Source of the DNA: a bacterium
GTDB lineage: Bacteria; Patescibacteriota; Minisyncoccia; Moranbacterales; GWC2-37-73
Reading direction: 5' to 3'
Assembly (NCBI GenBank): GCA_003251635.1
Contig: QKEW01000008.1
Coordinates: forward strand, 33,489 to 97,488
DNA: 64,000 bases
The position numbers and the translations under genes are program-made. Below are positions 48,704-49,742 of the stretch, piece after piece (position 1 is the first letter of the stretch; every line of letters begins with the position of its first letter). The notes under the pieces are model-generated. The model was given only the letters and a program-made list of their open reading frames with translations. It was not told the DNA's origin and did no database searches.

Positions 48704-49400
48704 GGGACCAGCAGGATTCGAACCTACGACCAAGCGGTTATGCTTCTCACTGCCACTTTCGCAACTTCTTTCGAATTTGTGAGCTGGACTATCCCTTCAC
48801 CCGTAAAACGGGGTCTGCCATCTAGTCTCTACACCTTCTTTGTTTGTACCATAGAATATGGAACATGCAAAGCTTGGCTCGGGATTGTCATAGATATAAA
48901 TATCCTTAGATTTCCCCGAATTTGACAGAATTCACTTGAAAATTACTTTTCAAGCAGCCCTGCAAATATCATTCATGTTATGTTATAATTAAATTATGAA
49001 AAAAATCATAACTTGTACCATTTGCAAAAAGACATTGTCTGGAAAACAAACAAAATTTTGTTCTCCAAAATGCAGAAATAAATCCCTGCAATCCTATCCT
49101 AGCCAACAAATTCGTGGCCTGAAAAGAAAGCGTCTTCTAGTAAAGCTAATGGGTGGATGCTGTTCAATTTGTGGCTATAGTAAAAATTTTGCTGCACTAA
49201 CATTTCATCATTTGAACCCAAAAAAGAAATCTTTCCAATTAGATCTAAGATCCCTATCCAATAGAAAAATGTCTAGGATTGATTCGGAAATGAAAAAATG
49301 CGTCTTGGTTTGCCAAAATTGCCACACAGAATTACATAATCCACAACACAATTTAGAATGAACTTTTTGAGCCGCCTGCTCTACCACTGAGCTATGGTCC
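48704..49400 (-). tRNA. tRNA-Ile2/Met-type (anticodon CAU) interrupted by a group I intron of about 625 nt
   Basis: Exon 1 (49400..49369): GGGACCATAGCTCAGTGGTAGAGCAGGCGGCT. Exon 2 (48743..48704): CATAACCGCTTGGTCGTAGGTTCGAATCCTGCTGGTCCCA. The joined sequence closely resembles E. coli tRNA-Ile(LAU). The intron follows U33 and ends in G. Its core matches the tRNA-Leu group I intron consensus (CAATCCCGAGCCAAGC, GAAGGTGTAGAGACTA). Confidence 0.7.
48996..49361 (+). CDS. HNH homing-endonuclease-like protein encoded antisense inside the tRNA group I intron
   Basis: Cys-rich zinc-binding N-terminus (CTICKK...CSPKC, CCSICGY). HNH motif FHHLNPKKK...N...CQNCH. It has its own TATAAT-like box upstream. 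Confidence 0.65.
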   Translation: MKKIITCTICKKTLSGKQTKFCSPKCRNKSLQSYPSQQIRGLKRKRLLVKLMGGCCSICGYSKNFAALTFHHLNPKKKSFQLDLRSLSNRKMSRIDSEMKKCVLVCQNCHTELHNPQHNLE

Positions 49401-49417
49401 CAATTCTCTCCTTTTTT

Positions 49418-49742
49418 GTGCCTCGGGTCAGAATTGAACTGACGACACAAGGATTTTCCTGTTTATTTCTCTTGAATTTCTTCAAGGATCGGACTATATC
49501 ATCTTCGTTCCCAAGGGAGTGCGAAGTCGGGCGCTTTTGCAAGATTATTGTTGGGACTCACTTGCTAGTCTCTACACCTTCCTCAAAACTAAAACCCTTT
49601 GAGGCTTGGCTCGGGATTGCCTTGTTTTTTCAAAAAATTTAGGTTTCCCCGAATTCACCCGATTTTTAATTCTACATTACTATAGAATGGACCGAAATTC
49701 AGTCCTTTGCTCTACCACTGAGCTACCGAGGCCTGCATAATG
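49418..49742 (-). tRNA. tRNA-Phe(GAA) interrupted by a group I intron of about 253 nt
   Basis: Exon 1 (49742..49711): GCCTCGGTAGCTCAGTGGTAGAGCAAAGGACT. Exon 2 (49457..49418): GAAAATCCTTGTGTCGTCAGTTCAATTCTGACCCGAGGCA. The joined sequence resembles bacterial tRNA-Phe. The intron contains GGGGAAACCTAAAT, ACAAGGCAATCCCGAGCCAAGCC and GGAAGGTGTAGAGACT, as in the cyanobacterial tRNA-Leu intron. Confidence 0.7.

Follow-up and report, generated by a model that had tools for sequence, protein, structure and literature searches.

How two neighbouring tRNA genes that are broken within the anticodon loop can still yield tRNAs, and what a protein-coding gene on the opposite strand is doing inside one of the breaks, are the questions raised by a tRNA cluster in a Patescibacteria genome (Moranbacterales; contig QKEW01000008.1 of assembly GCA_003251635.1). 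We analyzed a stretch of 64,000 nucleotides of this contig (positions 33,489 to 97,488), which is called the window below and is numbered from its first letter. The two genes encode tRNA-Phe(GAA) and a tRNA with the anticodon CAU, best read as the AUA-reading isoleucine tRNA (tRNA-Ile2). We put at about 0.85 the probability that both breaks are self-splicing group I introns and that the one in the tRNA-Ile2 gene is mobile and carries an antisense HNH homing-endonuclease cassette.

Two adjacent tRNA genes are split after U33

With default settings, ARAGORN reported no tRNA between tRNA-Gly (48548..48622, minus strand) and tRNA-Val (49776..49851). With introns allowed, it returned two split class-I tRNAs of 72–73 nucleotides (nt) on the minus strand, at 49732..49418 and 49401..48702. 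The Rfam group I intron model (Intron_gpI, RF00028; gathering score 50), a check that had been set beforehand, matched the minus strand at 49710..49470 (86.9 bits, E 8.8e-21) and at 48977..48762 (83.6 bits, E 8.9e-20). The two programs together confirm the pair of adjacent intron-split genes, Phe-GAA and CAU, that an earlier note on this DNA had described. The parts of the two genes are as follows.

49701..49732, minus strand: 5′ exon of tRNA-Phe(GAA), nt 1–33, with U33 at its end (ARAGORN with introns; intronless syntenic tRNA-Phe)
49459..49700, minus strand: group I intron in tRNA-Phe, 242 nt, site 33/34, without an open reading frame (Rfam RF00028)
49419..49458, minus strand: 3′ exon of tRNA-Phe, beginning G34 A35 A36, CCA not encoded
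49370..49401, minus strand: 5′ exon of tRNA-Ile2(CAU), ending ...GGCGGCU33 (intronless counterpart in L177)
48743..49369, minus strand: group I intron in tRNA-Ile2, 627 nt, site 33/34, IC3-like (Rfam RF00028)
48703..48742, minus strand: 3′ exon of tRNA-Ile2, beginning C34 A35 U36 A37 A38, CCA not encoded

Read on the minus strand, both genes have an exon that ends in U33, an intron that ends in G, and an anticodon that opens the 3′ exon. To obtain relatives, one genome per species was scanned with the HNH protein of the Ile2 intron; this gave 303 relatives, and the loci of the best 80 were retrieved. In 64 of these 80 loci an antisense HNH gene lies inside a tRNA(CAU) gene split at 33/34, and the junctions of all 64 have the form ...CU33, variable intron, G, CAUAA. 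The first intron bases differ among the loci (CAA, UAA, CGA, UGA, CAG, UUC), and the 3′ exon constantly begins with CAUAA. The placement of the introns after U33 and their final G, as first proposed, thus agree with both the anatomy of the window and the homologous junctions, and the core blocks said to be common to the two introns are present in both. ARAGORN labeled the CAU tRNA "Leu(CAA)", and similar labels such as "Ser(CGA)" appeared in relatives. We rejected these labels as artefacts of junction placement: under group I rules, only the arrangement U33, intron ending in G, CAUAA gives a seven-base loop, so that "Leu(CAA)" comes from an ambiguous junction.

The joined exons form canonical tRNAs, as had been claimed, and match uninterrupted genes of syntenic relatives. 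The joined CAU exons are identical at 67 of 72 nt to the intron-less CAU tRNA of the metagenomic relative L177 (795..868 of that locus), which has the gene order of the window (Gly, CAU, Phe, Val, Leu, RluD, Leu) and an RluD protein 64.5% identical to that of the window. The tRNA-Phe gene is uninterrupted in 11 syntenic loci, and the 10 compared directly share the anticodon arm with the joined Phe exons of the window.

Identity of the CAU tRNA: most likely Ile2

A CAU anticodon alone does not discriminate between tRNA-Ile2 and elongator tRNA-Met, tools of the ARAGORN type label CAU tRNAs Met, and the acceptor stem GGGACCA is unlike that of Escherichia coli tRNA-Ile2. An elongator tRNA-Met is nevertheless very unlikely. 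The best E. coli match of the joined CAU tRNA was the CAU-anticodon tRNA-Ile (84–86% identity), with near-identical D arm, anticodon arm and variable loop, and tRNA-Met was absent among the eight matches listed; the earlier note had already remarked on a likeness to E. coli tRNA-Ile(LAU). The G1-C72 pair excludes an initiator tRNA. Homologous exons were assigned to Ile2 in a survey of 4,934 complete genomes (PMC13011429; Nakagawa et al. 2026, mSystems). The window also contains a separate CAU tRNA and, as first reported, the gene for tRNA-Ile lysidine synthetase:

61605..62600, plus strand: tilS, tRNA-Ile lysidine synthetase (TIGR02432 181.9 bits, cut-off 93.6; Pfam PP-loop 176.6 bits)

The reading as tRNA-Ile2 is drawn from all of these together: the E. 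coli match, the G1-C72 pair, tilS, the second CAU tRNA and the published assignment. The second CAU tRNA is a different one (35342..35418, plus strand; Rfam tRNA score 53.8 bits). In the ARAGORN drawing its anticodon stem is unusually long, at 6–7 pairs with an A.A mismatch among them, and positions 1 and 72 form a G1.U72 pair.

Structure of the Ile2 intron

We aligned 53 homologous Ile2 intron cores and predicted their helices with RNAalifold, which recovered P2, P3, P4, P5, P6, P8 and a three-helix P9 domain. Compensatory changes were found in 37 of the 48 predicted pairs. Standard pairing was present in 96.4% of cells, as compared with 33–47% when the 3′ partner was slid by one to three columns, and the observed values were reached in 0 of 500 shuffles. 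P7 is invariant in these cores, so that covariation cannot test it. The elements map to the window as follows.

48746..48954, minus strand: Ile2 ribozyme core (column-to-coordinate map, covariation counts)
48954..48935, minus strand: P2
48929..48924 with 48819..48814, minus strand: P3
48919..48879, minus strand: P4/P5
48878..48833, minus strand: P6
48829..48823 with 48791..48786, minus strand: P7
48813..48798, minus strand: P8
48783..48746, minus strand: P9, two GAAA hairpins
49355..49376, minus strand: P1 and 5′ strand of the P1 extension, exon GGCGGCU followed by intron CAAAAAGUUCAUUC (duplex prediction)
48953..48975, minus strand: 3′ strand of the P1 extension (GAAUGA...) and internal guide GGGCUGCU (48960..48953)

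About 410 nt separate the 5′ splice site from the internal guide GGGCUGCU, which lies downstream. P1 proper pairs GCGGCU33 with GGCUGC of the guide and places a U.G pair at the splice site; one compensatory case in this family, A31 opposite a U in the guide, was read by eye from the alignment in L080. The region between the start of the HNH open reading frame (ORF) and the guide is the pairing partner of the exon end and of the first 18 bases of the intron (predicted duplex −21.0 kcal/mol, z −5.1 in the window), and across 58 loci differing sequences form the same helix (mean −18.1 kcal/mol, mean z −3.0). Because this pairing spans the ORF, P1 is extended and the HNH reading frame makes up its terminal loop.

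Nothing is inserted between P7 and P3′ of the Ile2 intron, which, by its homology to introns labeled IC3 in PMC13011429, is classed here as IC3-like. The Ile2 intron of L037 (Chloroflexota; 1568..2874 of that locus) reaches 1307 nt, with the HNH gene and about 700 nt of extra sequence that resembles a second, partial intron-like segment.

The Phe intron belongs to another family

In the Phe intron, P1 is GGACU|GAAUUUC GGUCC, and U33 forms a U.G pair with the guide. Exon position 31 and its partner in the guide covary without exception across 46 distinct metagenome copies (A-U 35, C-G 11, U-A 1). Of the 44 pairs predicted from 48 aligned family members, 31 show compensatory changes, and 96% of cells are paired.

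An extra hairpin of 27 nt, GCAAGUGAGUCCCAACAAUAAUCUUGC, stands between P7 and P3′ and is followed by AGCGCCCGAC. This post-P7 element is common to the Phe introns of the window, of L005 and of Doudnabacteria and to Patescibacteria tRNA-Asn introns at site 35/36, and is absent from the Ile2 intron. The sharing of this hairpin with the tRNA-Asn introns indicates that the Phe and Ile2 introns are different lineages. The term "cyanobacterial-type", which had been applied to both, consequently suits the Ile2 intron, a homologue of IC3-classed introns, but not the Phe intron with its P7–P3′ hairpin and Patescibacteria relatives. We also considered whether the Phe intron arose by transposition of the adjacent Ile2 intron, and rejected this origin because of the extra post-P7 element, because the intron groups with other Patescibacteria introns, and because 46 Phe introns occur with an uninterrupted neighboring CAU tRNA.

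A metagenome scan gave at least 46 distinct copies of introns at the Phe site, 208–304 nt in length, and no ORF is present in any of the 48 Phe introns examined. Together with the intron tabulated for one Doudnabacteria genome (GCA_016699995.1), the only Phe(GAA) 33/34 entry in PMC13011429, these copies overturn the earlier impression that the site is not commonly described. The window intron aligns over its full length with the Doudnabacteria Phe 33/34 and Patescibacteria tRNA-Asn introns, including GUGAGYCCAACAAUAAUC...AGCGCCCGAC after P7; the tRNA-Asn introns differ in their site (35/36) and in carrying an HNH gene on the sense strand, whereas the Phe introns have none. Among syntenic loci, the window and L005 have the Phe intron and 11 others lack it. 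It belongs to a separate Patescibacteria lineage without a homing-endonuclease gene (HEG), patchily distributed among relatives.

The covariation in both families bears on a further alternative, namely that one or both of the interrupted genes are dead relics and that functional tRNA-Phe and tRNA-Ile2 genes lie elsewhere in the genome. Our view was limited to 64 kb and neither gene encodes CCA, which would suit relics. On the other hand, the ribozyme cores and exons are fully canonical, the two families show compensatory evolution, and ARAGORN found no other Phe or Ile2 gene within the window, so that we regard decay as highly improbable.

An antisense HNH gene with its own promoter

The cassette within the Ile2 intron consists of a gene and a promoter on the opposite strand:

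48996..49361, plus strand: HNH endonuclease gene, 121 aa, antisense to tRNA-Ile2 (ORF; Pfam PF01844)
48961..48989, plus strand: HNH promoter, with a −35-like TGCAAA (48961..48966), a 17-nt spacer, an extended −10 element TGtTATAAT (48981..48989) and 6 nt to the ATG

The 121-aa ORF is present where the earlier note had placed it and matches the Pfam HNH family above the cut-off (PF01844, 23.9 bits versus 21.4); there is no NCBIfam model for it. Look-ups of its exact sequence, and of that of the neighboring recombinase, returned no record. The protein combines an N-terminal CxxC...CxxxC zinc ribbon with an HNH motif that has a Cys4 zinc site. In 33 aligned sequences, H71, H72, N89, N108, H110, H114 and eight cysteines, including C56, C59, C106 and C109, are invariant. 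The AlphaFold model has a pLDDT of 92.2. A fold search of the PDB with this model put HNH nucleases in all the top places (Cap5, the Cas9 HNH domain, Gme HNH, T4 endonuclease VII), but as weak matches only (E of at least 0.04, TM about 0.35), and gave no specific homing-endonuclease relative. The best PDB sequence match had an E value of 0.004 and the best Foldseek match one of 0.04. The protein collection held 247 homologues, with 57–77% identity among the matches listed and named sources mostly in Patescibacteria. The HNH protein encoded on the sense strand of a Patescibacteria tRNA-Asn intron is 43% identical to that of the window.

Comparison of the HNH copies gave a nonsynonymous divergence (pN) of 0.13–0.24 and a saturated synonymous divergence (pS) of 0.71–0.87, with dN/dS of about 0.1 where computable, which indicates that the protein is under strong purifying selection. 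The ORF is intact in 58 of the 64 loci, including every syntenic Moranbacteria-like locus retrieved.

The end of the gene is interlocked with the ribozyme. In the window the HNH stop codon is 8 nt from the Ile2 5′ splice site, and the closing GAA TGA of the gene is complementary to the P1-extension strand UCAUUC. Other lineages have a stop codon that straddles the splice site, or a reading frame that extends 15–29 nt into the sequence antisense to the tRNA 5′ exon. An overrun of 15–29 nt or more past the splice site is seen in L024, L025, L029, L035, L037, L038, L047, L055, L058, L065–L067, L076 and L078, and in all of these the host tRNA gene encodes the C-terminal tail of the protein.

That the HNH gene has its own promoter, another of the original proposals, is supported by comparison of the loci: a −10 hexamer lies upstream of the gene in 52 of 58 loci, and in 49 of these 52 it stands exactly 6 nt before the ATG. 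No Shine-Dalgarno sequence precedes the gene in the window, and such motifs were found in 4 of the 58 loci. The position of the −10 box and the missing Shine-Dalgarno sequence suggest that the mRNA is probably leaderless. The −35 element and spacer overlap, on the opposite strand, the 3′ strand of the P1 extension and the guide. The Chloroflexota copies have a perfect TTGACA −35 element, 17 nt further upstream, which abuts the complement of the guide. The free-standing HNH copies examined (L062, L027 and L028) retain the −10 box 6 nt before the ATG. A generic promoter scan of the window did not flag this promoter because the −35 element of the window is weak, and the promoter was established from the comparison of loci instead. 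A terminator-like hairpin at 49069..49038 was discarded, as it was no more than expected by chance.

Distribution and probable mobility of the cassette

The hosts of the 64 loci with the antisense gene belong to several classes of Patescibacteria and to Chloroflexota (Anaerolineae), together with one metagenome-assembled genome (MAG) labeled Acidobacteriota. The same antisense-HNH tRNA(CAU) intron is present in three viral contigs. Ile2 33/34 introns without the HEG retain remnants of the HNH promoter and of the P1 extension.

The HNH gene also occurs outside introns. In eight gammaproteobacterial loci (L060, L062, L063, L068 and L071–L074), an intact HNH gene lies about 60–240 bp upstream of tRNA-Ile2 and diverges from it; a different group I intron splits this tRNA-Ile2 gene, at the Azoarcus-type site 36/37. 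Two of these gammaproteobacterial MAG contigs are filed under Halobacteria MAGs; a protein encoded in L062 resembles, by eye, an RpoD-type sigma factor. In L027 and L028 the HNH gene is free-standing, 1.8 kb from an HEG-less 33/34 Ile2 intron. A search of IMG/VR gave 275 HNH relatives, of which the best 80 (L202–L281) were examined. Phage tRNA arrays contain 67 of the 80, each no more than 200 nt from a tRNA gene; Asn(GUU) is the closest tRNA to 26 relatives, and a CAU tRNA to 10. Viral contig L218 has three intron-containing tRNA genes in a row.

Among syntenic loci the presence of the two introns is patchy. Both are found in the window and in L005, only the Ile2 intron in L001 and ten others, and only the Phe intron in L177; the Phe gene lacks an intron in 11 of the 13 syntenic loci that the window makes up together with 12 retrieved ones, and the empty sites are precise. 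In L177, the closest relative, a 259-aa ORF (780..1559 of that locus, minus strand) with an N-terminal helix-turn-helix (HTH) lies between tRNA-Phe and the intron-less tRNA-Ile2 and runs into the tRNA. By eye it resembled a LAGLIDADG protein; this assignment was dropped, as Pfam finds only the HTH.

We read the Ile2 intron as a mobile group I intron with a homing endonuclease, which would cleave the intron-less allele. An alternative is that the HNH protein is no longer, or not only, a homing endonuclease and has another role, such as a maturase-like folding aid or a nuclease against foreign tRNA arrays or phage DNA, with the intron as a safe harbor. The HEG of a fixed intron is normally expected to decay, whereas here purifying selection is strong, synonymous sites are saturated and the 58 intact ORFs include all the syntenic Moranbacteria-like ones; the abundance of HNH relatives in phage tRNA arrays would fit as well. 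As for a folding aid, HEG-less introns, including those of L027 and L028, keep all ribozyme helices, and the protein is therefore not required for the fold. The invariant catalytic residues argue for nuclease activity, and the sampling was biased toward loci that contain the HNH gene. Overall, we consider another role unlikely.

A model for splicing, expression and homing

The reading that we prefer, two self-splicing introns and a mobile HNH cassette in the Ile2 intron, can be cast as a sequence of steps. The minus-strand tRNA cluster (Leu, Val, Phe, Ile2, Gly) would probably be transcribed as a precursor, from which both ribozymes would excise themselves by guanosine-initiated, two-step transesterification. 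P1 would form between the internal guide and the 3′ end of the first exon (..ACU33 in Phe, ..GCU33 in Ile2), and a U33.G wobble would lie at the 5′ splice site. The final G of each intron is its omega-G, and ligation would restore a seven-nt anticodon loop to give tRNA-Phe(GAA) and tRNA-Ile2(CAU); TilS, encoded in the window, would then be able to modify C34 of the spliced tRNA-Ile2 to lysidine. From the opposite strand of the P1 loop, the cassette would be expressed through its sigma-70-type promoter, a probably leaderless ATG and the 121-aa HNH gene. Antisense placement and a private promoter would allow the protein to be made from inside an untranslated, fast-folding tRNA precursor, and the excised intron or the pre-tRNA would be a natural antisense RNA to the nuclease mRNA. 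The HNH protein would most likely nick or cut intron-less tRNA(CAU) genes in the region of the anticodon loop, and repair from an intron-bearing copy would spread the intron and the HNH gene together.

Several points weigh against this reading. What the sequences show is the anatomy of the genes, the covariation of the ribozymes, and the conservation and distribution of the HNH protein; splicing, the activity and target of the nuclease, its expression from a leaderless start, cleavage and any antisense regulation are things that we infer from them. The genome was seen over 64 kb, and intact second copies of either tRNA are possible elsewhere. In the Ile2 family, P1 proper has 4–7 bp and is mismatched in some loci, for example with guide variants like GGGCUACU, and an alignment read by eye gave no covariation in P1 beyond exon position 29. 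A protein of 121 aa is small for a sequence-specific homing enzyme. The saturation of synonymous sites between HNH copies suggests that the copies are old and largely lineage-specific rather than recently transferred, and purely selfish homing would not explain why the HEG stays intact for so long in introns that are apparently fixed; another function may be involved. Finally, the loci were sampled through the HNH protein, which favors HEG-bearing over HEG-less or intron-less Ile2 genes in the sample.

The HNH lineage is tied to tRNA(CAU) genes whichever intron interrupts them, also where the HNH gene is not intronic, which points to tRNA(CAU) as its target. A more specific scenario, which we offer tentatively, is that this lineage is an endonuclease specific for tRNA(CAU) genes, seen at successive stages of intron invasion, and that ribozyme folding and nuclease expression are coupled. 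The stages would lead from free-standing genes, in phage tRNA arrays and chromosomes, to a divergent position about 60–240 bp upstream of a tRNA-Ile2 gene protected by a 36/37 intron, and then to the antisense position in the P1 loop at 33/34. Within the intron, the guide region and the P1-extension helix would at the same time serve the nuclease gene as its promoter, probably leaderless start and last codons. Coupling would act through antisense RNA to the mRNA and through head-on transcription across the tRNA 5′ exon; if this is true, it could tune both the dose of nuclease and the supply of the AUA decoder.

Relation to known introns and significance

Antisense endonuclease genes are known in group I introns of eukaryotic nuclear ribosomal DNA, and the principle is not new. 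A small self-splicing intron is likewise known in the anticodon loop of the same tRNA species, the pre-tRNA-Ile(CAU) of Azoarcus; it is inserted at 36/37, forms P1 on CAU and has no ORF. The window intron differs from it in its site (33/34), and the gammaproteobacterial loci within L060–L074 use 36/37 with the HNH gene outside the tRNA gene.

The closest published introns are the Ile2 33/34 introns (IC3) reported in PMC13011429 from Acidobacteriota and Bacillota_B (GCF_000018425.1). They share with the window intron the host tRNA, the site, a homologous core (...ACAAAYYCGAAAGRRGY..GCGAAAGY..GUGRGAAG|CAUAACC), the internal guide GGGCUGC and the P1-extension hairpin. They differ in being 243–252 nt long and without an ORF, whereas the intron of the window and 63 others carry the antisense HNH gene in the P1 loop. 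The same survey, the most recent one of bacterial tRNA introns, found endonuclease genes in 12 of 333 of them, called very rare and none of them in Ile2, recorded no Patescibacteria tRNA intron of IC type, and concluded that horizontal spread of tRNA introns is limited. Neither "antisense" nor "opposite strand" occurs in its text, a 2014 review of bacterial group I introns (PMC3984707) does not contain "antisense", "opposite" or "orientation", and a full-text literature search gave no relevant account of an HNH gene placed antisense in a tRNA group I intron.

Three other systems are related in part. The cyanobacterial tRNA-fMet(CAU) intron with I-Ssp6803I (Bonocora and Shub 2001, cited in PMC3984707) is, according to passages of PMC3984707 and PMC13011429, likewise a group I intron that is mobile and inserted at 33/34 of a tRNA with a CAU anticodon; its host is the initiator tRNA and its nuclease is of the PD-(D/E)XK type, not HNH, and these passages do not mention an antisense placement. 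In collaborative homing, a free-standing endonuclease and an ORF-less intron share one target site (PMC3984707). The HNH family of the window, seen free-standing near an HEG-less intron, adjacent and divergent, and intronic, is comparable in its gene arrangement, from which the parallel is drawn; the published cases concern phage protein-coding genes. The intron-encoded phage HNH nicking enzymes I-HmuI, I-TwoI and I-PfoP3I (partly after PMC3428280) and the HNH genes of phage tRNA regions share the HNH motif and an occurrence in group I introns or tRNA arrays. The intron-encoded enzymes are unlike the window protein in being larger and encoded by sense-strand ORFs in protein-coding hosts, and the sequence relationship is limited to the HNH core.

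Both introns of the window therefore belong to recorded families. What is new is the antisense, probably leaderless HNH cassette in the Ile2 P1 loop, together with how widely it is distributed and the occurrence of free-standing relatives next to the same tRNA gene. Among draft genomes of Patescibacteria and Chloroflexota, the IC3-like Ile2 intron with its HNH gene is widespread, and viral contigs contain it as well. Because standard tRNA finders mislabel or miss the split genes, apparent "losses" of tRNA-Ile2 and tRNA-Phe in reduced genomes are inflated. With the cassette, a protein would be expressed economically from within a gene whose RNA is not translated, and the coexistence of free-standing, adjacent and intronic states in one nuclease family provides a natural test bed for the assembly of mobile introns. 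The 121-aa enzyme is very small and might be of practical interest if its presumed specificity for tRNA genes holds.

A large serine recombinase beside the cluster

A gene for a large serine recombinase with Resolvase, Recombinase and zinc-ribbon domains (47084..48559, plus strand) overlaps the tRNA-Gly gene at 48548..48622 on the minus strand. Homologous recombinases adjoin the equivalent tRNA clusters in L012, L013, L017, L025, L047, L109 and L192. The position of the recombinase beside the cluster suggests an integrative element that targets it.

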